A DNA stretch of 64,000 bases from the NCBI GenBank assembly GCA_018303115.1, contig JAGVYT010000001.1:10279-74278 (forward strand), written 5' to 3'. The DNA is from Candidatus Woesearchaeota archaeon (GTDB lineage Archaea > Nanobdellota > Nanobdellia > Woesearchaeales > UBA10216). The stretch's first letter is position 1. Each line of letters begins with the position of its first letter. The notes under the pieces are model-generated. The model was not told where the DNA came from. It worked only from the letters and a program-made list of their open reading frames with translations, and searched no databases. Both the position numbers and the translations under genes were made by a program. Shown piece by piece: positions 549 to 17,622 of this stretch.

Positions 549-2376
549 TCTCAAGAATCCTGTGGTCTTCATCTTCATACAAAACTCTCGCGTGCTCCCG
601 CATCAACCCCTCCATAAGGGACTCGCGGTGCTCAACATTTCCAAGCAAATCCCTTGCCAAATCTGTTTTTCCAAACAGGATGTGAGTGATGCCAAAACCC
701 TTCAATCCTGCATAAAGCTCACCTGCTGAAGAAAACTCATCAAAATCCAGCGTCTGCTGAAAATAGGTATCTGAAAGAAAATACTTACGCTCAAGATGAT
801 AGCTCCTTGTCTCCCGGAAGAAGAGAACATACGCCTCCTCAGAAAGGTTGTTGTTTGCAAACTGCAACGCCTTAAAAGGATTTGAATCCTCTCCGCCAGC
901 AAGGTAATTTTCCTTTGACACAACCCCAAACGCAGCAGGCATGCGCTTTGCAGCAATGCCAGCCCATACCGGAACAGAGAACAGCAGCACAAGAAGAACC
1001 AAGGCGGCAATGACAAGGCGATACCTTGACTTCTCAAGCACCCAAAACACAGAATAAGCAGCCGGCGGCATCAAGACTGCCATGACTGGAAGAAGATAGC
1101 GCAGCCCGGGATTTGTGAACTGCCACGCGAACATTGAAATAAAAAAGATGAGGACTGCATAGCCGGCAAACAGCCGCTTCCCGCCAGGAATGGCACGGGG
1201 GATGAAAAGGGGGAGAAAAACAAGGAAAAAAGGGGTAATGCCCAGAACGCTGTCAAACTTGACAGGGTTAAATGTTATTAGCACAGGAAGGACGGCAAAC
1301 TTTAAAATCCCCTTAACATTGAATGCGTTAAACCCGCTGTCCTCAGCAACTAGGCCTTCCATATGCCGGTTAAGCTCCACAGCCAGGGGGTCGCGAGTGA
1401 TTTTTGACAGGAACGGGTAAACAGGGTCGCCTGTGTTTGAGTAAACCCATGCGAACCATGGCGCTGCAACAAGCAGCATAACAGCACCTGCTGTTAAAGA
1501 ATACCTGGCGAACAGCTTGAAGTTGCTTCTATAACGCAGAATCAGCCACACAACAAAAGCCATAGCGAAAGCAACAGACGCAAATAAAGCGGTTATCTTG
1601 TAAAAAGCAAGCGAAGACGCAAAAACAGAAAACAACAACACCCACTTCATGCCCTGCCTTTCAGAAAAGGAAAGCAGGGAGTAAAAAGCCAGAATGGAAA
1701 AAAAGGCTATTGGAAGGTCTACGAGCGGCTGGGACGCCCACTCAATAAAAACAGGCATGCTGGCAAATGCCAAGCCGGCAAACCATGCCGCCTTTCTGGA
1801 GAAAAAGCGGTAAGTCGCTGCAGCAACAGCCAAAGCAGCCAACGAGCTAATAGTAGCTGCTAAAAGGCTCGGCACTTGCTCACCAACCCCAAATAATTCC
1901 GGCAGCACGTAGAGCATGCTAAAGCCATGGGGAATGCTGGCATGAATGTTATTCGGCATTTCAGAAACAGCGTGCTGCTGCGCGTAAAATTTTGCTATAG
2001 GAAGGTGGTAGTTAAGGGCGTCTATGCTGAACACAGGGGCAAGGGACATAACGAAATTGCCAATAAGAAGGAGCGCCAGGGCAAAAAACAGGAATGCGTT
2101 CAAATCCCACTTTACAGAAAGCCTTATTTTTCCCCAGCTTTTTATTTCACTTACAGAAAGAAGCAGGATAACAAAAGCCACTGCCACGAAAACCGGGCGG
2201 TAAAGCAGCCCGAGCAAGCCAAGATAAAAAATTCCCAGAGTTGCTAAAACAGTTCCCAGCCCGACAGAAAACAAAGCCTTCTCATACCATGCAAGCCCCA
2301 GCTTTGAAAGAACCCTTGAGCCAAGCAAATAAAAAATGGCTACCAAAGCAAGCCAAAAAAATATTTCAGCAATCAT
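541..2376 (-). CDS. integral membrane glycosyltransferase, GT-C fold (polyprenol-phosphate-sugar dependent, ArnT/PMT-like), family uncertain
   Basis: ~610 aa with >10 predicted TM helices followed by a soluble C-terminal domain. Start chosen at internal ATG (MIAEIFFWLAL...) because the upstream extension is Cys/Pro-rich and non-TM. Sits in a glycan cluster. Confidence 0.5.
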   Translation of the reverse strand: MIAEIFFWLALVAIFYLLGSRVLSKLGLAWYEKALFSVGLGTVLATLGIFYLGLLGLLYRPVFVAVAFVILLLSVSEIKSWGKIRLSVKWDLNAFLFFALALLLIGNFVMSLAPVFSIDALNYHLPIAKFYAQQHAVSEMPNNIHASIPHGFSMLYVLPELFGVGEQVPSLLAATISSLAALAVAAATYRFFSRKAAWFAGLAFASMPVFIEWASQPLVDLPIAFFSILAFYSLLSFSERQGMKWVLLFSVFASSLAFYKITALFASVAFAMAFVVWLILRYRSNFKLFARYSLTAGAVMLLVAAPWFAWVYSNTGDPVYPFLSKITRDPLAVELNRHMEGLVAEDSGFNAFNVKGILKFAVLPVLITFNPVKFDSVLGITPFFLVFLPLFIPRAIPGGKRLFAGYAVLIFFISMFAWQFTNPGLRYLLPVMAVLMPPAAYSVFWVLEKSRYRLVIAALVLLVLLFSVPVWAGIAAKRMPAAFGVVSKENYLAGGEDSNPFKALQFANNNLSEEAYVLFFRETRSYHLERKYFLSDTYFQQTLDFDEFSSAGELYAGLKGFGITHILFGKTDLARDLLGNVEHRESLMEGLMREHARVLYEDEDHRILEIT

Positions 2377-2476
2377 GCGTAAAACCCCAGAATTTGAATT
2401 GAGCGGATAACCAGGAAAGCAGCTATAGCTACGACAATCCACAGCAGCAATAACAAGTCAAGCCCTTTACCCATTT

Positions 2477-3139
2477 TCATTCAAAGTAAATAAACTCGTA
2501 ATCGCCCGTATAGCCAAGGCGCTCAAAAAGCCACACCCACTCCTCAGGCCTGAAAAAAGACTCTGCAGTCAGCGCCCAGCACTCAAGGTTAAACAGCTCA
2601 AGCTCATTCCTGTAAGATTCCATTGTAACATACTTATTCCTGCCAACCCTTTCAATCTCACTCAATGCAGTCTGCAATTCAGGGAGGGTAAGGTTATGCA
2701 GGGTGTTAAGGGATATAACCAAATCAAACTCCTTGTCCCCAAACCCGTAAGGCTCCTGCGCCCTGTGCACGAAAAGACTGCTTTTAACCTCCTCCTTGGC
2801 ATTTTTTATGGCATATTCCGAAATGTCAAACCCCTTAACTTCGCATTTTGGAAGCAGCTTCTTAAACTCATAAAGAAGAAACGCCTTTCCGCACCCAACA
2901 TCCAGTATTTTTGCGTTTTCCTGAAGGTTGTAAGCCTCAATAAGCTTTTTCGCGACAGTCTCCCACCTTCCGTCATACCTGTAGCCGCCATAGCCGTATC
3001 TCCTATCCCCGTCCCAGTATTCCCGGCCATACTTCCTGGATATTTTCATGCACTCAACTTTATCATCATTCATTCTTCCGATACAATCCCTTTTCGACCT
3101 TTTATGCAGCGGCGTTATAATAGCCAACAGTTTTCCCAT
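2477..3139 (-). CDS. class I SAM-dependent methyltransferase
   Basis: Motif I LDVGCGKAF, acidic residue at GFDIS, motif II FDLVIS. The ORF caller's start is a GTG; first ATG (MGKLL) used. Confidence 0.65.
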   Translation of the reverse strand: MGKLLAIITPLHKRSKRDCIGRMNDDKVECMKISRKYGREYWDGDRRYGYGGYRYDGRWETVAKKLIEAYNLQENAKILDVGCGKAFLLYEFKKLLPKCEVKGFDISEYAIKNAKEEVKSSLFVHRAQEPYGFGDKEFDLVISLNTLHNLTLPELQTALSEIERVGRNKYVTMESYRNELELFNLECWALTAESFFRPEEWVWLFERLGYTGDYEFIYFE

Positions 3140-3159
3140 ACTTAACACCTCACAACACC

Positions 3160-4080
3160 TCACGGCTTTTTCATAAGCTTTCTTATTTCTGCCAACAGGC
3201 TTCCAGCACTAACCGAATATTTTTCCATCAGACTCGCCTGAGAGCCATAACCATCCGGAAAAATGTCAGGGATGCCGATAATTCTGAACAGCTTGCCAAG
3301 ATTGGCTTCTGCTATGACTTCGGCTACAGCGCTTCCGAGCCCCCCGATAATGCTGTGCTCCTCAATGGTGATTATGCCCGACACTTTCCCGGCATACTTG
3401 AGAATGCTCTCCCTGTCTAAAGGTTTTATAGTGGGAACATGGAGTATCGAAACGTCAATCCCCTCATTTTTAATGGAATCTGCAGCTTCCTTAGCAAGCC
3501 CAAGCGTGATGCCAGTTGTTACAACCAGCACATCCTTTCCCTCCCTCATTGGAATGGCTCTGCCAATCTCAAAAGAATCATTGGAAGTGACTATGGGGTC
3601 AAAGCCCTTGGCAAGCCTTATGTAAATAGGGCCTGGGTAATCAACAGTTAGCGGCATCACCCTGCGCATTTCATCAGCATCAGCAGGGGCTATCACAGTC
3701 ATGTTCGGTATTGCACGCATAATAGCAATATCATCAATCGCCTCATGGGTTGGGCCAAGGGGGGCATACACAAGTCCACCGCCATTGCCAATAAGGCGGA
3801 CAGGCAGGTTATGCAGGCACAAGTCCAGAACAATCTGCTCAAAACAGCGCCTTGTTATAAAAGTTGCAATTGTGTTAACATAAACTATCTTGCCCTCAAG
3901 GGCAAGCCCTGCAGCCATCCCGATAATATTCTGCTCTGACACGCCCTCCATGAAAAAGCGATCAGGCATCTCCTTCTTGAACCTGTCAAGCGTGCCTGCG
4001 CCAAGGTCAGAGCCTATAAAGAATATTCTCCTGTCTTTTTTTGCCAGTTCGTAAACCATTTCCAAGCTTGTCTTGCGCAT
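3160..4080 (-). CDS. transketolase, C-terminal subunit (pyrimidine-binding and C-terminal domains)
   Basis: FFMEGVSEQN..GMAAGLALEGK, GPTHEAIDDIA and the MRAIPNMTVIAPAD block are typical of split transketolase subunit B. 1-nt overlap with upstream subunit. Confidence 0.85.
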   Translation of the reverse strand: MRKTSLEMVYELAKKDRRIFFIGSDLGAGTLDRFKKEMPDRFFMEGVSEQNIIGMAAGLALEGKIVYVNTIATFITRRCFEQIVLDLCLHNLPVRLIGNGGGLVYAPLGPTHEAIDDIAIMRAIPNMTVIAPADADEMRRVMPLTVDYPGPIYIRLAKGFDPIVTSNDSFEIGRAIPMREGKDVLVVTTGITLGLAKEAADSIKNEGIDVSILHVPTIKPLDRESILKYAGKVSGIITIEEHSIIGGLGSAVAEVIAEANLGKLFRIIGIPDIFPDGYGSQASLMEKYSVSAGSLLAEIRKLMKKP

Positions 4081-4892
4081 CAGTATTCCTCCAGCCCCCT
4101 GTAAAGTTCCTTAATTTCACCGTCGTTCAACCCGCTCTTGTGATGCCATTCCATGTTGCCCTCTGCAAACTTAATGCCCTTGCCCTTCATAGTATGACAA
4201 ATGACAACGCTGGGCTTACCCGCATCTACAGGCAGGTTTGAGAACGCAGACTTAAGCTCATCCAAATCATGACCATCCACTTCCCTGACGCCAAACCCAA
4301 AACTCCTCCACTTATCAGCCAAAGGCTCCAGGTCCTGAATGCCAACTGTCGGGCCATAAGACTGATACTTGTTATAATCCATAACAACAACGAGATTGTC
4401 AAGCTTATGCTTCCCGGCAGACAAGGCAGCCTCCCACACGCTGCCCTCATCTGCCTCACCATCTCCAATGACGACAAAAGTGCGGTAACCTGCTTTTTCA
4501 TAGCGCGCATTAAGGGCCATGCCTATCCCCACAGGAAAGCCGTGTCCCAAACTGCCTGTTGAAAACTCAACGCCGGGTATTTTAGGCTCAGGATGACCCC
4601 CAAGAATGCCATCAATCTTACAGAATTTCCATAACTCTGATTCAGGGAAAAACCCTTTCTCTGCAAGAACTGCGTAAAGCGCAAGACAGCCATGACCTTT
4701 GCTGAGGATGAACCTGTCCCGCCCCTCCCATCCGGGGTTTTCGGCTTTGTAACGCAGAACATCATCATACAAAACCCTGATAATTTCCACCAGGGAAAAG
4801 GCAGAGCCCAGGTGCCCGCGCCTGCTGCACTCCAAAATCCTGATTATTGTCCTTCGCAGTTCCTTTGATTTAGCGTCAAGAGGCATCGTCAC
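4080..4892 (-). CDS. transketolase, N-terminal subunit (TPP-binding)
   Basis: GHLGSAFS, SKGHGCLALYA, GSLGHGFPVGIGMA and GDGEADEGSVWEA thiamine-diphosphate motifs. Confidence 0.85.
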   Translation of the reverse strand: MTMPLDAKSKELRRTIIRILECSRRGHLGSAFSLVEIIRVLYDDVLRYKAENPGWEGRDRFILSKGHGCLALYAVLAEKGFFPESELWKFCKIDGILGGHPEPKIPGVEFSTGSLGHGFPVGIGMALNARYEKAGYRTFVVIGDGEADEGSVWEAALSAGKHKLDNLVVVMDYNKYQSYGPTVGIQDLEPLADKWRSFGFGVREVDGHDLDELKSAFSNLPVDAGKPSVVICHTMKGKGIKFAEGNMEWHHKSGLNDGEIKELYRGLEEY

Positions 4893-5950
4893 AACCCATA
4901 AGGAAAGTTCTTATAAACCAGAGAAACTTCGTCAAGAAGCACCCTTGCCTTAACAAGCTGCTCAGCCTGCACCTCCTCTGCCACCAGCGGTTCTCCATAA
5001 GCGAACTGCCTCCTGAGAAAATGCTCGGCAAGGAACTCGTTCAGGATGATAAGGCACCACTTGAGGCCGAAGAGAGGAAAAACAATCCTCAACCTTGCTT
5101 CAAGGGAGCTGTCTTCAGGAAAGCACGAAAGGACATTCCTGACAAAATGTTCCTTAAGCCCGGAACTAAGATTCATCTCCGGGTGAAGCAGAAAATCAGA
5201 AATTGTTTTTGCAGGGTCATCCCAGCCAAAATGCTCAAAATCAAGGAAAACGATAGAGCCGTCGCCTTTCCTCAATGCGTTATGGAATCCGAAGTCAGAC
5301 GGGCTTAGAACCATCCTTCTTTTCTTTATGAAAGAGCCGTATTCCAATTCGCTCCCAAAAAACTCCAGCTCTGACCTGCACCACCTGACAACTGAATTAA
5401 ACAAAGGCAGAAACTCCTCCTCAAGAAACCCGCTCAGGCCGACATCCTCTGAAATCTCAGCCAGCCGGTTATACCTTTTTTCCAAGTTTCCAACTACATC
5501 GCCAACCGAAAAAAAGGCCTCAGAAGCCGGAGAAATGCCGACAGCCTTCTGCCTCAGAGCATTAATCCTCTTAAGAAAATCAGAGGCATAGTCTATATCC
5601 CTCTCTGTTATACCCTGAGAACCAACCTTTGCCCCGTCAATATACTCGTAAATTGCAAAGCGTTGCTCATTATGAATGAAAATAGGCTCAGGGACGTTCC
5701 TTATCCCGTTATTCCAAAGAAAGCGCAAGGCGGAAAACTCCACGCCCATCCTGTCCCTGAAATCAAGCTCATTGGAAAAATAGAATTTACACGCGTATTT
5801 TTTAGAATCATTACACCTAACAAGATAAATCCTGCTGTTACGGCCCTTGGCGATTCTCTCAAAAGAACGCACGCCACTCCCCACTATAGGAAGTATAAGT
5901 GAAATCCTCTTCTGGAAGAACTTATCTTCCTGACCTGAATAAGTGCCCAT
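4889..5950 (-). CDS. aminoglycoside-phosphotransferase-fold kinase (APH/choline-kinase family), probable sugar kinase
   Basis: Catalytic-loop-like SDFGFHN and FLDFEHFGWDDP motifs of the APH/ChoK/AmgK fold. 4-nt overlap with transketolase gene. Confidence 0.6.
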   Translation of the reverse strand: MGTYSGQEDKFFQKRISLILPIVGSGVRSFERIAKGRNSRIYLVRCNDSKKYACKFYFSNELDFRDRMGVEFSALRFLWNNGIRNVPEPIFIHNEQRFAIYEYIDGAKVGSQGITERDIDYASDFLKRINALRQKAVGISPASEAFFSVGDVVGNLEKRYNRLAEISEDVGLSGFLEEEFLPLFNSVVRWCRSELEFFGSELEYGSFIKKRRMVLSPSDFGFHNALRKGDGSIVFLDFEHFGWDDPAKTISDFLLHPEMNLSSGLKEHFVRNVLSCFPEDSSLEARLRIVFPLFGLKWCLIILNEFLAEHFLRRQFAYGEPLVAEEVQAEQLVKARVLLDEVSLVYKNFPYGL

Positions 5951-6545
5951 TTATGCCATCCCAGCTCCTGAAAACCTTAACGCCGTCCAAATGCCCCTGC
6001 CCTCCATAAGGGTCATACAAAATCTTCTCGACCCATTCAGGGAACAGCCTGTCACAAAACGTTTCCTCAAGGTCGTCTATGAAATGCGTGCAGCCAAGCT
6101 GCCTGATTCGCTGCAGCTTCCCTTCCCTTGTAGACTCAAAGTGAACATCCGCTCTTGAAACAGCCAACCCCCCCTCTTTAAAAAAGTTGTTTCTTTCCAT
6201 CCAATCAAGCGCAGCTTTCCTGAAGTTGGAACCGCCCCCGAAGTAATTCGAGAACTCAGTCTTATGGCTGATTATAAAAACCTTAACCCTATTATCCTTA
6301 CACAGCCTGAAAAACCGCTCAACACCGTCTATAAGCTCAGCTTCCCCCATCCTCTGCCCGTAAATAACAGCCTGCACCTCCTGCCATTTTTCATCCCCGT
6401 GAACCTGCCTGACGGCATCGCGGATATGCCTTTTGACCTTCTTAATGCCCTCGCTGACTAAACCCATCTCCAGGGCAACCTTGTGTATCAGGGCATCATA
6501 GCTCACAATAGTGTTGTCCAAGTCCACTCCAATAACATAATCCAT
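5922..6545 (-). CDS. HAD-superfamily phosphatase
   Basis: N-terminal DxD motif (MDYVIGVDLDNTIV) and later FIISHKT / FIDD motifs. Start set at first ATG (ORF caller start is TTG). Confidence 0.6.
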   Translation of the reverse strand: MDYVIGVDLDNTIVSYDALIHKVALEMGLVSEGIKKVKRHIRDAVRQVHGDEKWQEVQAVIYGQRMGEAELIDGVERFFRLCKDNRVKVFIISHKTEFSNYFGGGSNFRKAALDWMERNNFFKEGGLAVSRADVHFESTREGKLQRIRQLGCTHFIDDLEETFCDRLFPEWVEKILYDPYGGQGHLDGVKVFRSWDGINGHLFRSGR

Positions 6546-6643
6546 TGTGTTTTGGTTGAAAAGCAAATCTATATAAATATTCTGACATTCCTCTGCAAAG
6601 GGGTTTAAGCAAAAGCCGCGAATATAAAACAGGCTATAACAAA

Positions 6644-7525
6644 ATGCCTAACGAAATAGACAGGATTGTAATCTTCGGGCACACCGGATTCATAGGCAGG
6701 CATCTTGAGAGGTTCCTGAAAGAAAAACACCCTGAACTGGAAATAATAGGGGCTTCGCTTCCATCAGTTGACCTTACCAAGGACAGTGCTCCCGTAAAAG
6801 GGCTTTTTGGAATGAAAACAGCAGTCATCATGCTGTCTGCGCTTAAGAGGGAACACGGCGACAACCTGGACAATTTCTTAAAGAATGTAAAAATGGCTGT
6901 GAATGTCTGCAAGCAAATTGAAAACAATCCTGTCAAGCGATTCATTTACTTCAGCTCAGCAGCAGTTTACGGGGAGGACGTCCAAAATTTAAGCATCAAC
7001 GAGGACAGCCCGGTAACCCCGACAACATATTACGGGATAGCGAAACACAGCTGTGAAAGACTGCTTAGAAAAGCCACAGGCTCCGGAAAAGGAAGCGCTC
7101 TCACTATTTTGAGGCCGCCGATAATATACGGGCCAGGAGACAACTCAGGCTACAGCCCTTCCGGGTTTGCAAAAACAGCGATGAGAGGCGAAACCATAAA
7201 ATTGTGGGGGGACGGCACTGAAAAAAGGGAGTTTATATTCGTGGAGGATGTTGCGAGGGCAGTAGAGAAGCTTGTCTTAAACAACCACGATTGCACGTTG
7301 AACCTGGCAAGCGGCAAAAGCTACACTTTCGCTGAAATAATAGACGAGCTGTCAAAACTGACTAATTCAGAAATAAAAGTCGAATCAAGGAAGAGAACGA
7401 AAGAAAAGGCTGACCACGGATTTGAAAACACTGCGCTGCTGAAGGTGTTCCCGGAATTTTCGTTCACGCCGTTAAGCGAAGGCCTTAAGAAAACAATTGA
7501 CGCGATAAAAGGGGGAACAGAATGA
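6644..7525 (+). CDS. NAD(P)-dependent sugar epimerase/reductase (SDR family, RmlD/GDP-fucose-synthase-like)
   Basis: N-terminal GHTGFIGRHL Rossmann motif, YGIAKHSCE (YxxxK) active site. TATA-like GAATATAAAA ~22 nt upstream. Confidence 0.65.
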   Translation: MPNEIDRIVIFGHTGFIGRHLERFLKEKHPELEIIGASLPSVDLTKDSAPVKGLFGMKTAVIMLSALKREHGDNLDNFLKNVKMAVNVCKQIENNPVKRFIYFSSAAVYGEDVQNLSINEDSPVTPTTYYGIAKHSCERLLRKATGSGKGSALTILRPPIIYGPGDNSGYSPSGFAKTAMRGETIKLWGDGTEKREFIFVEDVARAVEKLVLNNHDCTLNLASGKSYTFAEIIDELSKLTNSEIKVESRKRTKEKADHGFENTALLKVFPEFSFTPLSEGLKKTIDAIKGGTE

Positions 7526-9264
7526 GGCGCCGCACCTGCCGAAGCTGCCGAAGCGATGAAGTAAGAACCATGCTGGATTTCGGGATGCAGCCCCTTTCCA
7601 ACAGGTTCCTGAAATCCCCTGAAAAAAATGAGCCAAGGCACAGGCTTGCAATCGGGTTCTGCCATGCCTGCGGCGTTTTACAGCTAACTGATACGTTCCC
7701 GGCGAATGAGCTTATACCCCCTCACAAGTGGCTTTCCTACACAGAGCCTGAAAAGCACCTTGACAAACTTGCTGATGCGCTATCAAAACTGCCGGGAATT
7801 GAAAAGGATGCTCCAATATTCGCCATAAGCTACAAAGACGACTCCCTGCTGAGGAGAATGGAGAAACTTGGATTCAAGAACGTGGCCAGGCTTAACCCAA
7901 GAGAAGACTTGGGCGCTGAAGGCGATTACGAAGGGGTTGAGCTTATCCAAAACCTGTTTAGCGCAGAGAAGGCAAGGGGGATTGCAGAAAAAAAGGGGAA
8001 ATTCGGCATAGTCATAGCAAGGCACATCCTGGAACACTCTTACGACACACTAGATTTCATGAATGGGATAAAGGAACTGCTAAAGCCGGGAGGGCACGCT
8101 GTTTTTGAAGTGCCTGACTGCACCCTTTCCATGGAAAAACTTGATTACTCAATGGTCTGGGAAGAGCACCCGTTATACTTAACCCCTGAAACCTTCAGGA
8201 ACTGCCTAGCCATGAGCGGGTTTTCAACCGACAGGCTGGAAACATACCACTACCCGCTGGAGAATTCCCTTGTTGCAATAACAAAAGCAGGCAATACGGC
8301 GTTTTCGCCAGACAAAGAAGCCATCCAAAAAGAAGAGAAAAGGGCAAAAGCGTTTGCGCAGGAATTTGAAAAAAGAAAGGCAATGCTCAAATCGTTCTTT
8401 TCCGGTTACAACGGAAAGATAGCGGTTTTCGGCGCAGGCCACAGCGCAAGCGCCATCATCAACCTTTTCGGGCTGGAAAACATTGCATGCGTTGCAGACG
8501 ACAATGAAAAAAAGCATGGGCTTCTGATGCCAGGCTCACACCTGCCGATAGTCAGTTCAGACGTCCTTGAAAAGGACATCGACCTTTGCGTGCTTAGCGT
8601 CAACCCGGAAGCTGAAGAAAAGATAATAGCCAAGAAAAACCGGTTCAGGGGAAGCTTTCTGTCATTCTCGCCGGCAAGCAGGCGCTCAATATATGCAAAC
8701 CTCGCACACCTTGGAAACCCCGCCAAGTTCAGGGAGGTCAGCAAGGAAGTATACTACACAACAGAAAGCAGTGCCAAGCTCTACAAGGAGGACATAAGCC
8801 TCTTCAAGGAAAAATCAAGGAATAACGAGAGGGGGAAAAGCAGAATATGCACCCACGAAAGCACTGAAAACAAGCTCCATGAGATGTTCATCGTATTCAG
8901 GAAAGGCGCTTACGTAAGGCCGCACAAGCACCTTGACAAGCTGGAGTCGTTCCACGTTGTTGAAGGCAGCGCTTACGTTGTAACCTTTGATGAGCAAGGC
9001 GGAATAACAAACCTGTTTGAAATAGGCGAGTACCAGTCAGGGAAGAATTTTTACTGCAGGATGGCAGGGCCAGCTTACCACACCCTCATAATAAAATCAG
9101 ACTACCTGGCATTCCACGAAGCCACAACAGGGCCTTTCAGGAAATCTGATACTGTCCATCCGGCATGGTCTCCGGAAGAAGGCGACAAAGAAGGCATCAA
9201 AAAATTCATGGATAAGTTAGAGGCTTCGGTTAAGAGGCTTTTAGAGGACAGGAAAAATGGGTAA
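7522..9264 (+). CDS. sugar C-methyltransferase (TylCIII/NovU-like) fused to a C-terminal cupin domain
   Basis: N-terminal Zn-ribbon CRSCRS...CHACG, class I MTase core, a C-methyltransferase C-terminal domain. Last ~150 aa form a cupin-like module (PHKH...FHVVEGSAYVV...YHTLII), WbuC/RmlC/FdtA-like. ATGA overlap with upstream gene. Confidence 0.6.
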   Translation: MRRRTCRSCRSDEVRTMLDFGMQPLSNRFLKSPEKNEPRHRLAIGFCHACGVLQLTDTFPANELIPPHKWLSYTEPEKHLDKLADALSKLPGIEKDAPIFAISYKDDSLLRRMEKLGFKNVARLNPREDLGAEGDYEGVELIQNLFSAEKARGIAEKKGKFGIVIARHILEHSYDTLDFMNGIKELLKPGGHAVFEVPDCTLSMEKLDYSMVWEEHPLYLTPETFRNCLAMSGFSTDRLETYHYPLENSLVAITKAGNTAFSPDKEAIQKEEKRAKAFAQEFEKRKAMLKSFFSGYNGKIAVFGAGHSASAIINLFGLENIACVADDNEKKHGLLMPGSHLPIVSSDVLEKDIDLCVLSVNPEAEEKIIAKKNRFRGSFLSFSPASRRSIYANLAHLGNPAKFREVSKEVYYTTESSAKLYKEDISLFKEKSRNNERGKSRICTHESTENKLHEMFIVFRKGAYVRPHKHLDKLESFHVVEGSAYVVTFDEQGGITNLFEIGEYQSGKNFYCRMAGPAYHTLIIKSDYLAFHEATTGPFRKSDTVHPAWSPEEGDKEGIKKFMDKLEASVKRLLEDRKNG

Positions 9265-10486
9265 ATACACCAGGCGCGGCACGTGCAGGCTCTGCAGCTC
9301 AAAAGAGCTTGAACTTGCCTTTCAGCTTGCGCCAACGCCAATAGGAGATGCATACCTTCCAGTGAAGCAAAAACTAGAAAGCTATCCGGTTGAGCTTTTT
9401 TTGTGCAGAAGCTGCGGCCTTGCGCAACTGCTTGATGTTGTTGAGCCTGAAGAAGTATACCGCCCATACATATACAGGACAGCCGACTCACTGGGGCTGG
9501 TGGAACACTTCAGAAAATACGCTGATGAAGTAATGAAAGCCGTGAATCCCAAAAAAGGCGGCTTAGTGGTTGACATAGGCGGCAATGACGGCTCATTCCT
9601 GAAGTTTTTCAGAAATCATGGCATGAAAGTCCTTGGCGTTGACCCTGCAACCAAAATAGCCCGCGAAGCAACTGAATCCGGAATAAAAACACTGCCTGCC
9701 TTCTTCACGCCAGAACTCGCAAGCGAAATAAGGAAAGAGAACGGGAATGCCTCCATCATAACCGCAAACAACACAATGGCAAACATAGACGACCTGCAAG
9801 GCATGATGGACGGGGTAAAAAAGCTTTTAGCCCCTGACGGGGTGTTTGTGTTTGAAACAGGTTATGTGCTTGACCTGCTGCAGAAAAAAATCATTGACAA
9901 CATCTACCACGAGCACATAAGCTATTTCTCAGTAAAACCCCTTGAAAACTTTTTTCGGAATAATAGCCTGGAGCTCATAGACGCAAAGCGGGTGGCGACA
10001 AAAGGAGGCTCATTGAGATGCACAGTGCAGCTTAAAGGAGGTCCAAGGAAGCGCTCACCAGCAGCAGACGAGCTGATTAAGCTTGAGGCAGAAAGCAGAA
10101 TACACAACCACGAAACGTTCAGGGCATTTGCTTCCGAGCTGGAAAACATAAAAAACGAGCTGACTAAGCTGCTAAACGGGTTAAAGGCAAAAGGCAAGCT
10201 CATTGCAGGGTATGGGGCATCAGTAGGGGTAACCACCATACTGCATAATTTCGGACTAAACAAAAACCTGATAAGCTTCCTTGTTGATGACAACCCAAAC
10301 AGACAAAACTTATATAGCCCGGGCTTAAACATCCCAGTATTGAACCCAAAAGCGTTATACGAGAAAAAGCCGGACTACGTGGTCATCCTGGCCTGGCAAT
10401 ACGCAAAACCAATATTGGACAAGAACAAGGCTTATCTTAAACATGGGCGTTTCATAAACATAATCCCGAAAGTAGAGGTGGCATAA
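9257..10486 (+). CDS. sugar C-methyltransferase paralogue (TylCIII-like), no cupin
   Basis: Same architecture as the upstream gene: Zn-ribbon CRLCSS...CRSCG, MTase core VVDIGGNDGSF, C-terminal C-MT domain. 8-nt overlap with upstream gene. Confidence 0.65.
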   Translation: MGKYTRRGTCRLCSSKELELAFQLAPTPIGDAYLPVKQKLESYPVELFLCRSCGLAQLLDVVEPEEVYRPYIYRTADSLGLVEHFRKYADEVMKAVNPKKGGLVVDIGGNDGSFLKFFRNHGMKVLGVDPATKIAREATESGIKTLPAFFTPELASEIRKENGNASIITANNTMANIDDLQGMMDGVKKLLAPDGVFVFETGYVLDLLQKKIIDNIYHEHISYFSVKPLENFFRNNSLELIDAKRVATKGGSLRCTVQLKGGPRKRSPAADELIKLEAESRIHNHETFRAFASELENIKNELTKLLNGLKAKGKLIAGYGASVGVTTILHNFGLNKNLISFLVDDNPNRQNLYSPGLNIPVLNPKALYEKKPDYVVILAWQYAKPILDKNKAYLKHGRFINIIPKVEVA

Positions 10487-10487
10487 G

Positions 10488-11573
10488 ATGGGCAACAAAA
10501 TCAGCTGGTTCAGGAATTCATTCGGCGAGGAAGAGCTGAAAAAGCTGGGCGAGTCTGTAGCCCAAGAGCACATAAGCCTTGGCCCTGTCACAGCAGAGCT
10601 TGAAGCACAGTTTGCAAAGGAACTGAACATCCCTTACGCAGTGGCTGTGCCAAGCGGCAGCGTCGCACTCCTCATCTCCCTAATTGCATGCGGAATCTCG
10701 CCTGAGGATGAGGTCATCATGCCGAACCGAAGCTGGATTGCCACGGCAAACGCCCCGATTATCCTCGGAGCAAAAGCTGTCCTCGTGGATGTGCAGGAAG
10801 ACCTGCCACTAATCGACGCATCGCAAATCAGGGAAAAAATCACCCCAAAAACCAAGGCAATAATACCTGTGCACCTGAACGGCAGAAGCTCGGACATGGA
10901 AGCCATCAACAAAATAGCAAAAGAACACAGCCTGTTTGTAATAGAAGACGCATGCCAGGCAATGTTTTCAAAAAATTCCTCCGGATTCCTGGGGACACAG
11001 TCTGACATGGGATGCTATTCCCTTGGGGTAACAAAGCTTATCTCAACAGGCCAGGGAGGGATGATTGTAACAAGGAACAAAGAGCTTTACGAAAAACTAA
11101 AACTAATCCGCAACAACGGAACACCAGACCATTTCATCCCGGAATACACCACAGTAGGACTAAACTTTAAGTTCACAGACATGCTCGCTTCAATCGGCCT
11201 TGTGCACCTGTCACAATTAAAGGAAAGACTAAAGCACGTCAATAAGGTGTATGAAAAATATGCAGAGGCGCTCAAGGAAATGCCATACCTCAAAATGATT
11301 CCAGTAAACGTAAAACAGGGAGAGGTGCCAATCTATGTTGAAGTCCTGTGCGAGAAACGCGATGAGCTAATCAGTTTCCTCGCTTCAGAAGGCATTGAAA
11401 CCAGGCCATTCCTCCCAAACCTTGAAATGGCGCCTTACATTGAAAGCGGATATTTCCCAAACTCAAAGATTTTCGAGGAACAGGGCCTGTTCCTTCCTTC
11501 CGGCCCCTCACAGCCACTTGAGAATGTTGACAAGGTGATAGAAGCGTTAAAGCAGTTCGGGAGAGAATTATGA
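10488..11573 (+). CDS. DegT/DnrJ/EryC1/StrS-family PLP-dependent sugar aminotransferase
   Basis: Fold-type I sugar aminotransferase pattern with the lysine-containing GVTKLISTGQGG motif and IIPVHLNG block. Confidence 0.8.
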   Translation: MGNKISWFRNSFGEEELKKLGESVAQEHISLGPVTAELEAQFAKELNIPYAVAVPSGSVALLISLIACGISPEDEVIMPNRSWIATANAPIILGAKAVLVDVQEDLPLIDASQIREKITPKTKAIIPVHLNGRSSDMEAINKIAKEHSLFVIEDACQAMFSKNSSGFLGTQSDMGCYSLGVTKLISTGQGGMIVTRNKELYEKLKLIRNNGTPDHFIPEYTTVGLNFKFTDMLASIGLVHLSQLKERLKHVNKVYEKYAEALKEMPYLKMIPVNVKQGEVPIYVEVLCEKRDELISFLASEGIETRPFLPNLEMAPYIESGYFPNSKIFEEQGLFLPSGPSQPLENVDKVIEALKQFGREL

Positions 11574-12520
11574 AATTCATAGTCTTGGGAACAACAGAAT
11601 TCACGCTAAGATGCGCCCAGGCCCTTCTGGACAGCGGGGCTGAATTGCGCCTTCTTGTCTCAATGCCTGAACGCTCACGCCCAATCAATTCAGCAGACGT
11701 TTCGGGTTTTGCGCAATCCCATAAAATCCTCTACCATGAAACGGAAGACATAAACTCGCCCGAATCCTTATCTGCAATAAAGAAACAACAGGCAGATTAC
11801 ATCCTGGCATCCTGGCCAGCCATAATAAAAAGGGAAGTTCTAGGGGCAGCAAGGATGTGCATAGGCTCGCACCCTACAGACCTGCCGCACAACAGGGGCA
11901 GGCACCCCTTGCACTGGCTGATAACGCTAGGATTCAAGGAGTCAAAACTAAGCTTTTTCAGAATGAATGAAGGCATAGACTCGGGAAACATACTGCTTAA
12001 GATTCCATTCAGGATTGGCAAAAAGGACTCCATCATGGAGGTTGTTGCAGAACTGAACGATGCAGCATACAAGGGAACAAAGGGGCTTTACAGGCTGCTA
12101 AAGCGGTCAGTGCCCGAAGGAACAGAACAGGAGCATAAAGAAGCCAATTACTGGAGGAAAAGAAGCGTGCATGACGTGATTCTGGACTTAAGAATGCCAT
12201 CAGACACGATAATCAGGACTGTAAGGTCGTTTTCAACGCCATACCCATGCGCCAAGCTTATCTTTGAAGACAGCATCATTGCAGTATCAAAGGCAGAAGT
12301 TGCGCAAACACCGCTTTCTAAAGAGGAAATAATGAGGACAGAACCTGGAAAAATCATCAGCGCTGAAGGAAAAAGAATGCTGGTTAAAGCAGAAGACAAA
12401 ATCATGCTTTTAGAAACTGACGGGCTTCCACAGAAGATATTAGAGGCAAAATACATCCACCCCCCGTCAAAATACATTGCCGGATGGTCGCAGAATCAGC
12501 TCAAAAGACTAGAAAACTAG
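11570..12520 (+). CDS. sugar N-formyltransferase (formyl_trans_N family, QdtF/FdtF/ArnA-N-like)
   Basis: SHPTDLPHNRGRHPLHW matches the formyltransferase HxSLLPxxRG-type catalytic motif. 4-nt overlap with the aminotransferase gene. Confidence 0.7.
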   Translation: MKFIVLGTTEFTLRCAQALLDSGAELRLLVSMPERSRPINSADVSGFAQSHKILYHETEDINSPESLSAIKKQQADYILASWPAIIKREVLGAARMCIGSHPTDLPHNRGRHPLHWLITLGFKESKLSFFRMNEGIDSGNILLKIPFRIGKKDSIMEVVAELNDAAYKGTKGLYRLLKRSVPEGTEQEHKEANYWRKRSVHDVILDLRMPSDTIIRTVRSFSTPYPCAKLIFEDSIIAVSKAEVAQTPLSKEEIMRTEPGKIISAEGKRMLVKAEDKIMLLETDGLPQKILEAKYIHPPSKYIAGWSQNQLKRLEN

Positions 12521-12737: not shown

Positions 12738-13766
12738 TCAGCACATCTTGATTACGCATCTAATAACCCTGCCTTCGCGAAGTTCCTGTATTGCGGCATT
12801 AATCTCACCCAGACTGCATACCTTTGTCACCATCTTTTCAAGGCTAAACCTGCCAGACTCCTGCAGCCTCAGCAGCCTTGGTATGTCATACGCTGGATTG
12901 CTGTCCCCGCCGTGAGAACCGGTTATCTTCTTTTTGAAGTGCAACTTAAATGAATCTATGCACATCTTTTCCCCCGCTTTTGGAACGCCAACAAGAATTG
13001 TGCGCCCCTCCCTGCCGCTGACTTCGTAAGCAAGCTCCCTGATTTCCTTAATCCCAGTCGTATCAACGGCAACGTCGGCATCAGAGGAAAGATACTCGCT
13101 GATTTTCTGCCTTGCGTCTTCCCTTGAAGAATTAATGACATGCGTAGCGCCAAACCGTCTGGCATTTTCCAACTTAAAATCATTAATGTCAACCGCAATT
13201 ACCGGGTATGCTGAAGCCAAAGAGGAGGCAAGAATGATTGATGTCCCGGTGCCGCCTGCCCCAAAAACAACCAAGGACTCCCCGCTTTTCACGCCAGCAT
13301 CGTTCTGAACCACCCCAAAACCAGTAGTAACTGCACAGCCGTAAAGGGAAGCCAGCTTCATGTCAAAACTTTTTGGAATAGGGGTTATGCGATTTTCCGA
13401 AACGACAGCAGACTCATTAAAAGTAGTAACCCAGCCTGCATTAACCGTCCTGCCGCCAAGCTTATACACAGGGGTGGAAGACTCGACCCCCTTTCCTTTC
13501 CTCCAGTGCAAGACCACATGGTCGCCTTCCTTTACATTGGTGACGCCAGGGCCAACGCCTTCCACAACCCCGCTTCCCTCGTGCCCAAGAAGATGCGGCA
13601 GGAACCTATCAGGGCCCTTAACGCCTTCAATCTCATTAATCTGCGAGCCGCACAGCCCGCTGTAGTGCACCTTAACAAGAACCTGGCCGTAATGAAGAAC
13701 CTCAGGAATTTGAACTTCATCAACCACCAGAGGGGATTTCTGCTTCACTAAAATAGCCGCTTTCAT
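12738..13766 (-). CDS. zinc-dependent alcohol dehydrogenase (MDR family)
   Basis: GHEGSGVVEGVG and CGSQ zinc-ligand motifs, GAGGTG nucleotide-binding motif. Confidence 0.8.
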   Translation of the reverse strand: MKAAILVKQKSPLVVDEVQIPEVLHYGQVLVKVHYSGLCGSQINEIEGVKGPDRFLPHLLGHEGSGVVEGVGPGVTNVKEGDHVVLHWRKGKGVESSTPVYKLGGRTVNAGWVTTFNESAVVSENRITPIPKSFDMKLASLYGCAVTTGFGVVQNDAGVKSGESLVVFGAGGTGTSIILASSLASAYPVIAVDINDFKLENARRFGATHVINSSREDARQKISEYLSSDADVAVDTTGIKEIRELAYEVSGREGRTILVGVPKAGEKMCIDSFKLHFKKKITGSHGGDSNPAYDIPRLLRLQESGRFSLEKMVTKVCSLGEINAAIQELREGRVIRCVIKMC

Positions 13767-13887: not shown

Positions 13888-13910
13888 GACTCTTCTTCCG
13901 CCAAAGAAAA

Positions 13911-14900
13911 ATGGGCAAGATTGTTGTAATCGGGAGCAATTCCTTTGCAGGCTCACATTTTATAGACTACCTTTTGTCAAACACGGACAGCTCCATCATA
14001 GGCATAAGCAGAAGGGATGAGAAAAAAGACGTATTTCTCCCGTATAAGAAAAACAGGAACCTTGAGCGGTTCAGGTTCCAAAGGTTCGACCTTAACAAGA
14101 ACATGGCTGAGCTTCTGAAATTCCTGGACGATGAAAAGCCGGAGGTAATTGTCAACTATGCCGCGCAAAGCGAAGTGGCGCCAAGTTGGGAAAACCCGCT
14201 TAACTGGTATGACACAAATGTTTCGGCTGTTGTAAAGCTGACTAACCATTTGAAAGGCCAGAAATACCTGAAGAATTACGTGCATGTCTCATCACCTGAA
14301 ATATACGGAACATGCTACATGGAAGTTTACGAGGACCACTCATACAACCCCAGCACCCCTTACGCCGCTTCAAAGGCAGCCGGGGACATGTTCATACAGC
14401 TGCTTGCCAAAAACTTCAATTTCCCTGCTATTATTGTCAGGCCGACAAACTATTACGGTCCATGCCAGCAGCTTTTCAAGATAATACCAAAGTCAATAAT
14501 ATACCTCAAGAAAGGCGAAAAGATTCCTCTTCACGGGGGAGGCAGGGCAGTAAAATCATTCATTCACATAAGAGACGTGTGCGACGGCATGCTTAAAATA
14601 GTGGAAAAGGGGAAAGCAGGAGAGATTTACCACCTCTCCCAATCTTCAGGCTACTCTGTCAGGAAGATAGTAGAAAAAATCTGCAGTAAAATGGGGAAAA
14701 AATTCAATGAAGCAACTGACATCGTTGAAGAGCGGCTTGGCCAGGATGCATCCTACATAATAAGTTCCTACAAAGCAAGAAAGCTGAACTGGGAGCCCAA
14801 AATAGGAATAGACGAGGGCCTTGCAGAATGCATCAAATGGGTGGAAGACAACTGGAGCGAAATAAAAACTGAACCCCTCAAATACATACACGAGGCGTGA
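13911..14900 (+). CDS. NDP-hexose 4,6-dehydratase (RmlB-like SDR)
   Basis: GSNSFAGSHF Rossmann motif, YAASKAAGD (YxxxK). TTTAAATA box at 13880-13887, 23 nt upstream of the ATG. Confidence 0.7.
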   Translation: MGKIVVIGSNSFAGSHFIDYLLSNTDSSIIGISRRDEKKDVFLPYKKNRNLERFRFQRFDLNKNMAELLKFLDDEKPEVIVNYAAQSEVAPSWENPLNWYDTNVSAVVKLTNHLKGQKYLKNYVHVSSPEIYGTCYMEVYEDHSYNPSTPYAASKAAGDMFIQLLAKNFNFPAIIVRPTNYYGPCQQLFKIIPKSIIYLKKGEKIPLHGGGRAVKSFIHIRDVCDGMLKIVEKGKAGEIYHLSQSSGYSVRKIVEKICSKMGKKFNEATDIVEERLGQDASYIISSYKARKLNWEPKIGIDEGLAECIKWVEDNWSEIKTEPLKYIHEA

Positions 14901-16114
14901 TAAAAATACCTGCAAAGAAGGAAATAACACAGCACTGGTATTTCGAGAAAAAGGGAATCATTTCACAACACCGCAACCTAAAATCGCAAAGCGACCTTGA
15001 TTCCTACGAGCAGGAAAGAAGAGACCTGTTTACAGATAAGCTTGCGCTGCCGCCAAGCGCCTTTACCAACTCGCAATTGCTTGAGTTCGGGCCTTCTGCA
15101 GGGGAAAACGCCATTGTGTTTGCAATGTGGGGGGCTTCATGCACGCTTGTTGAGCCAAACCTCAAAGCACACCCCTGCATCAAAAAATATTTCGAGCAGT
15201 TCAAACTTGCACAAAAGCTTGTCGAAGTAGACGGCTCAACACTGGAAAGCTACTCCAAACGCCAAATACCTGACAAGAAATTTGACTTCATAGTTGCCGA
15301 AGGATTCATCTACCTAGTGAAGCCAGACCCCATGTGGATTGGCTTCTTTTCCAGAATCATAAAGAACAACGGGTTTGTCATCCTGAACTACTGCGAGACA
15401 TTCGGCAACTTTCAGGAGCTGTTCCTGAAAGCAATTCACAGCAGAATGTGCAAACTCACAGGGATGGGCTCTGTGGAAGCTGCGGGGAAATGGTTTGGAG
15501 CCAAGTGGAATTCCATACCGCACACCACAACAATGGAGTCCTGGGTGGCTGACGTTTTAGACAACCCAACTGTCCGGCTAGCGCGATTTTACGAACTGAA
15601 AGAGCTGTGCACAAACCTCTGCAACTCTGGATTTTACCTATACTCTTCCTGGCCACCGTATAAGAACAGCCTTGAGGTGTATTGGGCCAAGAAAATGCCA
15701 AAACCAAAAGAGCAGCTTGAATCACAGAACGAATTTATCGAAAGAAGCAGGCTTAGCCACATGTTCGGCAGGAAGCATTTCCTTCTAAAGACTGGCCCAG
15801 AAATGGAACCCTCCATTAAAGAGCTTCTTACCCTCACAGACAGCCTGATAGACGAATTTGACAGGGACAAGGCAGAGAAATGCATCGAGCACCTTGGCAG
15901 CATAGAGAGGCTCATAGGCTCGGACGCAGTAATTTCAGAGCCCAAAGACGTTAAAGAAACGCTTAACGCGATTAAAAGCATAAAGCACATCCTTAACCTG
16001 CTTATTGCAGGAAACGCAGACGACATAGCAGCATTCTGCAGCAGCGACAAGGCATTCATCAAAAGCTGGGGAATGCCCACGCATTACGCTGTCTTCAGAA
16101 AAGGAAGCGAATAG
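14897..16114 (+). CDS. hypothetical protein with N-terminal class I methyltransferase-like domain
   Basis: LEFGPSAGENAI (GxG), FDFIVAEGF and NNGFVIL resemble MTase motifs I-III. C-terminal ~200 aa helical and unassigned. ATGA overlap upstream. Confidence 0.35.
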   Translation: MIKIPAKKEITQHWYFEKKGIISQHRNLKSQSDLDSYEQERRDLFTDKLALPPSAFTNSQLLEFGPSAGENAIVFAMWGASCTLVEPNLKAHPCIKKYFEQFKLAQKLVEVDGSTLESYSKRQIPDKKFDFIVAEGFIYLVKPDPMWIGFFSRIIKNNGFVILNYCETFGNFQELFLKAIHSRMCKLTGMGSVEAAGKWFGAKWNSIPHTTTMESWVADVLDNPTVRLARFYELKELCTNLCNSGFYLYSSWPPYKNSLEVYWAKKMPKPKEQLESQNEFIERSRLSHMFGRKHFLLKTGPEMEPSIKELLTLTDSLIDEFDRDKAEKCIEHLGSIERLIGSDAVISEPKDVKETLNAIKSIKHILNLLIAGNADDIAAFCSSDKAFIKSWGMPTHYAVFRKGSE

Positions 16115-17513: not shown

Positions 17514-17578
17514 CAAAAAGCGGAAACGCGACATGTTTTTAAAGATTTGCGTTGACTGGTTCCAAATCTGAACATATT

Positions 17579-17622
17579 CCACTTTCCTCACCCTAATCCA
17601 GTTAAGGGGGAGGAAAGTGAGG
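17579..17622 (+). repeat. hairpin family member e (stem CCACTTTCCTCACCC/GGGGGAGGAAAGTGAGG with one mismatch, loop TAATCCAGTTAA)
   Basis: Read directly, in divergent region between EamA gene (-) and pfkB kinase gene (+). Confidence 0.65.

Follow-up and report, generated by a model that had tools for sequence, protein, structure and literature searches.

Do two adjacent TylCIII-like genes in an archaeal glycan locus add two methyl branches to one surface sugar, and what does the cupin domain carried by the first of them contribute? The question was raised by a 64,000-nucleotide stretch of DNA from a Candidatus Woesearchaeota archaeon (contig JAGVYT010000001.1, positions 10,279 to 74,278), hereafter the window, in which a preliminary description made from the letters alone had reported two forward-strand open reading frames (ORFs). 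Both were recovered where they had been placed, and are referred to as A and B. B belongs to a known kind of enzyme, and A, together with its WbuC-family cupin, is an uncharacterised, widely distributed variant of the TylCIII scaffold. The two genes and the domains of A are as follows.

7522..9264, forward strand: gene A, an A-type TylCIII-like protein fused to a WbuC cupin, 580 residues (ORF, Pfam, TIGR04366, PDB, Foldseek and AlphaFold2 (AF2))
7522..7713, forward strand: Cys4 zinc-ribbon domain of A, with C6, C9, C47 and C50 (PF08421, E-value 3e-16)
7714..8301, forward strand: class-I methyltransferase-fold core of A, with the non-canonical motif I A-I-S-Y-K-D-D (residues 101-107, nucleotides 7822-7842)
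8302..8691, forward strand: C-methyltransferase C-terminal (nucleotide-sugar-binding) domain of A, with G304-A-G-H307, D326-D327 and K331 (PF08484)
8734..9261, forward strand: WbuC-family cupin domain of A, residues ~405-580 (TIGR04366 and conservation)
9257..10486, forward strand: gene B, a canonical C-methyltransferase of nucleoside diphosphate (NDP)-4-keto sugars, 409 residues (Pfam, PDB, orthologue conservation and clade membership)

The architecture proposed for both proteins, namely a zinc ribbon, a class-I methyltransferase core and a C-terminal C-methyltransferase domain of the TylCIII type, was borne out by Pfam, PDB and Foldseek. B matched PF08421 (4e-14; 53 bits against a cutoff of 31.3 bits), PF13489 (4e-18, over the full-length profile) and PF08484 (2e-45; 155 bits against a cutoff of 23.5 bits, covering profile positions 2-160 of 160). 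Its PDB sequence matches extended from end to end and were led by MtmC (1e-87), TcaB9 (1e-68) and KijD1 (~1e-63), which, like TylCIII and EryBIII, are NDP-4-keto-sugar C3-methyltransferases (PDB 3NDI, 5T64 and 4RV9). With these enzymes B shares the Cys4 zinc ribbon (C10/C13/C50/C53), the E/D-I-G-x-N-D-G core, the C-terminal nucleotide-sugar domain and the Glu-His dyad. Its motif I reads D-I-G-G-N-D-G (residues 106-112), followed by G-V-D-P (127-130) and Y-H-E-H (217-220), and the [DE]-I-G-x-N-D-G signature, the acidic β2 residue (G-[VI]-[DE]-P) and the E-H dyad were present in 60 of 60 B-type sequences. The active-site residues of TcaB9, in part named in the titles of mutant entries in the PDB, are Tyr76, His181, Tyr222, Glu224 and His225; B keeps both tyrosines, the glutamate and the last histidine. 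It departs from the solved enzymes in having an asparagine (Asn176) at the His181 position, as do 36 of the 60 B-type orthologues, and in lying within an archaeal glycan locus rather than an actinomycete antibiotic cluster. B is thus predicted to be a canonical sugar C-methyltransferase of the TylCIII/TcaB9/MtmC type, dependent on S-adenosylmethionine (SAM).

That the cores of A and B instead represent a non-sugar methyltransferase family is extremely unlikely: such a family is hinted at by weak, sub-threshold NCBIfam matches to UbiG/UbiE-type enzymes, but every significant PDB match of either protein was a sugar C3-methyltransferase over the full three-domain length, the C-methyltransferase-specific profiles PF08421 and PF08484 exceeded their cutoffs in both, and the context is one of nucleotide-sugar metabolism throughout. 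Such an assignment of the cores would have refuted the preliminary description; it is already disfavoured.

The same three-domain fold was found in A by Pfam and Foldseek. Pfam matched PF08421 (3e-16, 59.7 bits), PF13489 (3e-11) and PF08484 (3e-13, 50.2 bits), and a PDB sequence search aligned A with solved sugar C3-methyltransferases at E-values between 7e-28 (MtmC, the best) and 4e-21. The full-length AF2 model, with a predicted local distance difference test (pLDDT) score of 92.7 and a predicted template-modelling (pTM) score of 0.71, was superposed by Foldseek onto MtmC, KijD1 and TcaB9 over ~410 columns with target-normalised template-modelling scores (TMt) of 0.72-0.77. The zinc-ribbon cysteines are conserved at 92% or more, and the core carries the further motifs R-L-N-P (123-126), A-R-H-I-L-E-H (166-172) and W-E-E-H (213-216). 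Like the C3-methyltransferases, A has the zinc ribbon, the dyad and the equivalent of His181: H79, E196, D326, K331, E215-H216 (E224-H225 in TcaB9) and H172 (H181 in TcaB9) are common to the canonical enzymes, with E215 present in 87 of 89 A-type sequences and both H216 and H172 in all 89. Near-invariant residues new to the A family are E75, E77, D81, K105, D107, R112, R123, R167, H168, E171, D199, W213, E214, E247 and H307, and the family has ~25 invariant or near-invariant polar residues altogether. In the model, the conserved polar residues lie at the C-terminal ends of β1, β4 and β5 and on the loop that bears the dyad; in class-I methyltransferase-fold enzymes, this is the face at which cofactor and substrate bind. 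Because these residues sit on active-site loops, they argue for A being an active enzyme that would handle a nucleotide sugar and abstract a proton beside a carbonyl, to judge from the alignment and the model.

A and B had been described as tandem paralogues. They are indeed adjacent, yet the sense of a recent duplication does not hold: they share 26% identity, and in a neighbour-joining tree without support values, computed from an alignment in which MtmC and TcaB9 were joined by 88 A-type and 59 B-type proteins of related loci, the A-types (89/89) and the B-types form mutually exclusive deep clades. Recent tandem duplication was accordingly rejected as an origin of the pair. The suggested comparison with characterised C-methyltransferases came out as foreseen for B alone: the mean distance to MtmC and TcaB9 was 0.66-0.72 for B-types and 0.85-0.87 for A-types, and A did not group with the characterised enzymes. 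On this tree, the A family appears to be an old, widespread sister branch of the TylCIII-type C-methyltransferases, which are generally treated as one uniform family.

The second distinctive feature of A is its cupin. Residues 422-551 matched TIGR04366, "WbuC family cupin fold metalloprotein", with 114.5 bits against a cutoff of 42 (profile positions 4-132 of 132), and PF19480 (DUF6016) is precomputed for an identical protein. The segment does have the cupin (double-stranded β-helix) fold that had been proposed, and its likeness to WbuC was upheld; membership of RmlC (PF00908) or FdtA/QdtA (PF05523), the other families named, was not, as neither Pfam family was matched. The motif R-P-H-K-H-x2-K-x-E-S-F-H-x2-E-G is followed downstream by Y-H-T, and H468, H470, K473 and H478 occur in all of the 17 fused homologues compared, E475 and H520 in 90% or more of them. 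These six are putative metal or catalytic residues, and the pattern fits a metal-binding cupin. Against PDB sequences the cupin profile reached no better than E~1, over the metal motif of L-ribose isomerase, and a match of that strength does not indicate function. The linker before the cupin (~residues 391-400) has low pLDDT. An identical 580-residue protein occurs in three independent ENA metagenome assemblies, so the fusion is real and not an assembly artefact, and fused orthologues are present in at least eight other archaeal genomes. Literature searches on WbuC, DUF6016, TIGR04366 and the gene cassette described below returned mentions in the context of antimicrobial resistance only, in which WbuC figures as a passenger or marker gene beside mcr-9 and blaCTX-M, with no functional study and no characterised member of the A-type/WbuC system.

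What the pair might do was approached through its operon and the genes that would carry its product onward, which are listed next; Pfam and NCBIfam matches of the neighbouring genes agree with the glycan-biosynthesis surroundings noted earlier.

6644..7525, forward strand: extended short-chain dehydrogenase/reductase (SDR), 293 residues, NDP-sugar epimerase/reductase-like, translationally coupled to A (PF01370)
10488..11573, forward strand: DegT/DnrJ/EryC1 aminotransferase dependent on pyridoxal phosphate, C4-aminotransferase-like (PF01041, 8e-84)
11570..12520, forward strand: sugar N-formyltransferase-like protein of the ArnA-N/Fmt family (PF00551, PF02911; NCBIfam PRK06988, ArnA)
16095..16868, reverse strand: GT2 glycosyltransferase, candidate polyprenyl-phosphate sugar synthase with an ArnC-like role (PF00535)
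17154..17648, reverse strand: ArnE/ArnF-like small membrane protein, candidate flippase subunit (NCBIfam PRK15051, 4.6e-11, below cutoff)
541..2442, reverse strand: PMT_2-family GT-C glycosyltransferase with an ArnT-like role (PF13231; syntenic in locus L009)

The start codon of A overlaps the stop codon of the upstream SDR gene as ATGA, the ORFs of A and B share 8 nt, and the aminotransferase gene begins 1 nt downstream of B and overlaps the formyltransferase gene by 4 nt; 6644..12520 is a single five-gene, translationally coupled operon. PDB matches of the SDR were epimerases, GDP-fucose synthase and GDP-mannose 3,5-epimerase. The top NCBIfam families of the aminotransferase were LegC, PseC, WecE, ArnB and DesI, which are all C4-aminotransferases and were all matched below cutoff.

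From the observed architecture, families, conservation, gene linkage and host taxon we infer substrates, modified positions, the cofactor of A and the order of steps as follows. The operon would be a tailoring line for an NDP-4-keto-(6-deoxy) sugar. In B, the Glu-His dyad would deprotonate the carbon beside the 4-keto group, and the resulting enolate would be methylated, most likely at C3. For A and the WbuC cupin, usually acting with the upstream SDR, the best guess is that they subject this 4-keto sugar to further enolate chemistry: the cupin might catalyse an epimerisation, as in NovW or in the zinc cupin of CapF (a WbjC/FnlB-type protein); A might carry out another modification at carbon, most probably the methylation of a further position, as NovU does at C5; and position 4 would be set or reduced by the SDR. 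In the lineage of the window, the 4-keto group may instead, or additionally, undergo transamination and N-formylation. The GT2 enzyme would next load the product onto polyprenyl phosphate, the ArnE/F-like protein would flip it, and the PMT_2-type GT-C transferase would attach it on the outside. The aminotransferase, formyltransferase and Arn-like export genes suggest a C-methyl-branched formamido deoxy sugar on a polyprenyl-phosphate carrier. Taken jointly, methylation by B, further processing by SDR, A and WbuC, C4 transamination, N-formylation and polyprenyl-phosphate export make up a tentative scheme, which we hold to be possible and which may well fail in one of its parts.

Several findings weigh against it. 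In A, PF13489 covers only profile positions 60-160, that is, the second half of the methyltransferase core. The canonical motif I (E/D-I-G-x-N-D-G) is absent from A, and A-types carry S/T-[YF]-K-D-D in its place, the first glycine having become Ser/Thr in 85 of 89 sequences, the asparagine Lys in 85 and the third glycine Asp/Glu in 76. The acidic position on β2 is Asn125 in the A of the window. A lacks the Gly-rich SAM loop; SAM binding, and hence a second C-methylation, can be no more than putative, and the A-type family may not be methyltransferases at all. Of the two C-methylations previously claimed for the locus, the one by B is retained, owing to its canonical SAM loop and its grouping with C3-methyltransferases, and the one by A is not, since the loop is replaced family-wide. 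A sugar bearing two C-methyl branches is not known to us. At C4, the SDR and the aminotransferase may duplicate one another. The sugar may be a hexose or a heptose: heptose-type activation genes lie nearby (17718-19875), but no SIS/GmhA isomerase was found among the window ORFs scanned. When the ORFs of 80 loci were classified against the window proteins, A and WbuC lacked a B-type neighbour in 11 of the 46 loci with full 10-kb flanks, so A is not strictly dependent on B. Finally, the scheme leaves the co-conserved transketolase, kinase, phosphatase and alcohol dehydrogenase (ADH) unexplained, as it does a 228-residue methyltransferase.

Loss of the canonical SAM loop across the whole A family bears most directly on an explanation that we regard as unlikely, though a serious contender: A is no longer a methyltransferase and acts as a nicotinamide-dependent 4-ketoreductase or as a cofactor-less or metal-dependent epimerase/isomerase, forming a CapF-like pair with the cupin, so that the sugar would carry a single C-methyl group, from B. 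K105, R112 and R123 were gained where the pyrophosphate of a dinucleotide or another anion could sit, and the glycine of L-G-x-D-P is Arg in 69 of 89 A-types. The Foldseek list includes RdmB (a hydroxylase) and TamK (a decarboxylase), methyltransferase-fold enzymes that do not methylate. MtmC, the nearest solved relative of A, with which it shares the R-H of A-R-H-I-L-E-H, is described in a passage of PMC3539893 that cites work on this TylCIII homologue from S. argillaceus as a 4-ketoreductase as well as a methyltransferase, and this dual activity is a precedent for a cofactor switch on the TylCIII scaffold. The obligate pairing with an epimerase-like cupin parallels CapF of S. aureus, in which, for UDP-L-FucNAc synthesis, an NADPH-dependent SDR reductase is combined with a zinc-dependent cupin active as an epimerase on a 4-keto sugar nucleotide (PMC5393024). 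Against this, a dedicated SDR is usual and is sometimes fused to A, which would make a second reductase redundant; the proton-abstracting dyad is invariant in A; Asp106 of motif I is retained, as is the acidic β2 residue in 66 of 89 A-types; and contacts to the amino-acid moiety of SAM would still be feasible for the Ser, Lys and Asp that replace the canonical residues.

The same remodelled cofactor motif, with a cupin partner fused or adjacent across loci, would also be expected if A were a pseudo-enzyme without catalytic activity, whose sole role is to hold the nucleotide sugar and offer it to the fused cupin. This is very improbable, because dead enzymes normally lose conserved active-site residues, whereas A-types keep ~25 invariant residues, mostly charged or His, on the active-site loops, the dyad included. 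As both the replacement motif and the polar residues are conserved family-wide, the change in motif I is a conserved replacement and not decay. The view of A as a decayed pseudo-methyltransferase was discarded as the leading one on these grounds.

The loci also show which partners A keeps. Of the 80, 9 have WbuC fused to A (8 of these are archaeal), 55 have it no more than 400 nt away, 12 have it elsewhere in the locus on the strand of A, and only 4, on short or cut-off stretches, lack it. The counts for the 46 full-flank loci are 46 for WbuC, 42 for the 228-residue methyltransferase, 39 and 38 for the C- and N-terminal transketolase subunits, 35 each for the B-type C-methyltransferase and the Zn-ADH, 33 each for the APH kinase and the HAD phosphatase, 26 for the SDR, 24 for the PfkB kinase, 19 for the 4,6-dehydratase-like protein, 17 for GT2, 10 for the aminotransferase and 3 for the formyltransferase. 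A and WbuC are thus an obligate pair, and B and the others are frequent though dispensable partners. A conserved cassette (SDR, B-type C-methyltransferase, 228-residue methyltransferase, split transketolase, APH kinase, HAD phosphatase and Zn-ADH) usually accompanies A-type genes. Its members in the window, with the associated sugar-activation genes, are the following.

2477..3163, reverse strand: 228-residue class-I methyltransferase, the most conserved cassette partner (Pfam; 50-73% identity across domains)
3160..4892, reverse strand: split transketolase, with the N-terminal subunit at 4080..4892 and the C-terminal subunit at 3160..4080 (Pfam; NCBIfam transketolase, 260 and 193 bits)
4889..5950, reverse strand: APH-family kinase, cassette member (PF01636)
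5922..6566, reverse strand: HAD-type phosphatase, 214 residues, cassette member (DxDxT motif "DLDNT" in the translation)
12738..13766, reverse strand: zinc-dependent alcohol dehydrogenase (Zn-ADH), class I/III-like, cassette member (Pfam, PDB)
13911..14900, forward strand: NDP-sugar (dTDP-glucose) 4,6-dehydratase-like SDR (TIGR01181, 210 bits, below the cutoff of 365)
14897..16114, forward strand: 405-residue protein with an N-terminal methyltransferase domain and an uncharacterised C-terminal domain (PF13489)
17718..18758, forward strand: PfkB kinase, heptose-7-phosphate-kinase-like (rfaE domain I; TIGR02198, 131 bits, below cutoff)
18745..19875, reverse strand: nucleotidyltransferase (rfaE domain II-like) fused to a GmhB-like HAD phosphatase (profile matches below equivalog cutoffs)

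Of note, the 228-residue methyltransferase, split transketolase, APH kinase, HAD phosphatase and Zn-ADH are co-conserved in about three-quarters of the 46 loci, in bacteria as well as archaea; neither the cassette (split transketolase, kinase, phosphatase, Zn-ADH and extra methyltransferase) nor the Arn-like export logic had figured in the preliminary description. The HAD-type phosphatase had no Pfam or NCBIfam match. A PDB sequence search was uninformative for the APH kinase and found no relative of the 405-residue methyltransferase, whose C-terminal region of ~230 residues has no Pfam, NCBIfam or PDB relatives. The gene for the latter overlaps that of the 4,6-dehydratase-like protein by 4 nt, and a homologue lies downstream of the WbuC gene in cyanobacterial loci (overlapping it in L035 and ~1.2 kb away in L032).

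Gene order varies around the A-WbuC core. The order SDR-A-WbuC-B recurs in Methanoregula and Woesearchaeota, and cyanobacteria have B-SDR-A-WbuC followed by the 405-residue methyltransferase, without the transketolase, kinase, phosphatase and ADH set. Triple SDR-A-cupin fusions of 830-930 residues were found in some archaea (P0015, P0017, P0022 and P0033). In Nanoarchaeia and related metagenome-assembled genomes (MAGs), the APH kinase is fused to the N-terminal transketolase subunit, a PfkB-SIS fusion (L004 and L008) stands alongside a GmhB-like HAD and a nucleotidyltransferase, and an STT3/AglB oligosaccharyltransferase gene is adjacent. In Nanoarchaeia and a related MAG, the B-type protein is itself fused to an N-terminal classical SDR (adh_short) in proteins of 706-721 residues, encoded directly after the A-WbuC gene (12787-14907 in L004/L005 and 11806-13971 in L008), which hints at a dedicated ketoreductase acting on what B produces.

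That A and B might serve different sugars or branches, for example an NDP-heptose and an NDP-6-deoxyhexose, and be adjacent merely through operon packing is improbable. The window does contain both heptose-type activation and 4,6-dehydratase-like genes, as well as further nucleotidyltransferase (NTP-transferase), UDP-glucose dehydrogenase and SDR genes, and the 11 loci in which A-WbuC does without B point the same way; yet B lies within 2.5 kb of A in 55 of the 80 loci, and cyanobacteria, methanogens and DPANN archaea alike keep the order SDR-A-WbuC-B or B-SDR-A-WbuC, in which stop and start codons overlap.

The cassette also gives room to a further explanation, which we consider rather doubtful: A-WbuC may be a new enzyme system of both prokaryotic domains, in which a TylCIII fold has exchanged SAM for another cofactor or metal and, transferring no methyl group, catalyses enolate chemistry on a nucleotide sugar, be it epimerisation, ketoreduction or an aldol-type branching with a C2 unit supplied through the co-conserved split transketolase and Zn-ADH, so that the cassette of roughly ten genes would build a new branched or higher-carbon sugar on the surfaces of hundreds of bacterial and archaeal species. 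In the lincosamide octose pathway, a higher ketose phosphate made by a trans-aldolase or -ketolase undergoes isomerisation, phosphorylation at C1, dephosphorylation and activation with a nucleotide; one idea is that the transketolase, kinase and phosphatase of the cassette would play analogous parts.

Returning to the tentative scheme of C-methylation by B and further processing by the SDR, A and WbuC, known systems resemble it in part. In noviose biosynthesis, the cupin epimerase NovW, the C5-methyltransferase NovU and the SDR 4-ketoreductase NovS act on an NDP-4-keto-6-deoxy sugar. Its triad of cupin, TylCIII-fold protein and SDR matches SDR-A-WbuC, and the pathway differs in that NovW is a metal-free RmlC-type cupin, whereas WbuC belongs to another cupin family with a His/Glu metal motif. 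The WbuC proteins of enterobacterial O-antigen clusters share TIGR04366 and the Pfam family DUF6016 with the cupin of A, but stand alone there rather than being fused to an A-type protein. From the C3-methyltransferases themselves, A is set apart by its rebuilt cofactor loop, extra conserved charged residues, deep separate clade and obligate cupin partner.

The Arn (L-Ara4N) pathway offers the closest likeness for the export part, with a C4 aminotransferase, an N-formyltransferase, a GT2, a small EamA-type flippase-like protein and a GT-C transferase. The likeness is one of logic and not of orthology, since the ArnB, ArnA, ArnC, ArnE/F and ArnT matches all fell below equivalog cutoffs, and no ArnD-type deformylase was found among the window ORFs scanned. 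The sugar also differs because of the C-methyltransferase module, and the archaeal acceptor cannot be lipid A.

To our knowledge, C-branched sugars are found almost only in actinomycete antibiotics and a handful of bacterial glycans. Among surface glycans, kansosamine of Mycobacterium kansasii is one C-methyl-branched precedent. Another is virenose (6-deoxy-3-C-methyl-gulose) in the lipopolysaccharide of Coxiella burnetii, for which there is a TylCIII homologue (PMC3539893). Both pathways differ from the present system in having a single canonical C-methyltransferase, with neither an A-type/WbuC unit nor a transketolase/kinase/phosphatase cassette.

How far the A-type family extends was determined by a scan of GTDB, one genome for each species, for two peptide patterns specific to A. 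Relatives were detected in at least 455 species genomes, mostly bacterial, and the archaeal fusion clade lies inside bacterial sequences, so that A-type proteins with a cupin are not the archaeal speciality they had seemed. The archaeal carriers include Woesearchaeota, Nanoarchaeia, MAGs labelled Methanosarcinales, Methanoperedens BLZ2 and Methanoregula; the bacterial ones include Omnitrophota, Verrucomicrobiota, Planctomycetota, Elusimicrobiota, Latescibacterota, Lentisphaerae, Microcoleus, a plasmid of Crocosphaera watsonii, Geotalea toluenoxydans, Polynucleobacter and others. A protein search yielded ~40 methyltransferase-cupin fusions and many stand-alone A-type homologues of 400 residues.

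The archaeal origin of the window was upheld. It also encodes GyrA, CarAB, ScpB and an RqcH_arch-like protein, and all named relatives of its GyrA are from Woesearchaeota or Nanoarchaeota, one of them, at 75% identity, being encoded on the Woesearchaeota contig JACPMZ010000004.1. The same contig carries the closest GTDB homologue of A and is syntenic with window positions 541-18758. This kinship and synteny identify the host as a Woesearchaeota-like DPANN archaeon. In the A-type neighbour-joining tree, likewise without support values, the DPANN sequences form one clade, which holds nearly all the fusions and is nested among bacterial sequences; the Methanoregula and Methanoperedens A-types are placed elsewhere among bacterial branches, and one alphaproteobacterial A-WbuC fusion (L052) lies outside the DPANN clade. 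The topology fits an acquisition of archaeal A-WbuC from bacteria, with the fusion arising mainly inside the DPANN clade.

With the A-type proteins, the C-methyltransferase family gains a second deep branch, in which the cofactor site has been rebuilt, a metal cupin is the obligate partner and a neighbourhood of ten genes is conserved; this branch ranges over Woesearchaeota, methanogens, cyanobacteria, bacteria of the PVC group and Geobacter relatives. Once solved, the chemistry of A would give a function to WbuC, which is annotated in thousands of enterobacterial genomes and plasmids, would tell whether the TylCIII scaffold can be re-purposed, as the dual activity of MtmC hints, and would probably reveal a new surface sugar. 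Several cultivable carriers of A-type genes exist, among them Geotalea toluenoxydans JCM 15764, Crocosphaera watsonii WH 8501 (on plasmid pCW1), Microcoleus sp. ARI1-B5 and a Polynucleobacter species. The locus further suggests that DPANN cells acquired bacterial-type sugar tailoring together with an Arn-like lipid-carrier decoration route.

Further along the window, a solitary 5S rRNA gene was found at 37382-37497 (Rfam, 78.9 bits), with no 16S or 23S rRNA gene nearby. A second nucleotide-sugar block spans 31783-35740 and comprises SDR, NTP-transferase and UDP-glucose/GDP-mannose dehydrogenase genes on the reverse strand and another NTP-transferase gene on the forward strand. Between 24000 and 30000, the GC content falls to 0.33-0.41, compared with ~0.47 elsewhere; ORFs 26123-26767 and 28116-28991 in this island have no Pfam match, an SDR and a GT2 gene flank it, and it looks like a variable or horizontally acquired section of the glycan locus. 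A second PMT_2 GT-C transferase is encoded at 22715-24454. The 790-residue protein encoded beside it (20305-22677) has a weak match to the bacterial TSP3 repeat and sub-threshold fn3 and purple-acid-phosphatase-N matches, and is a candidate secreted or surface protein.

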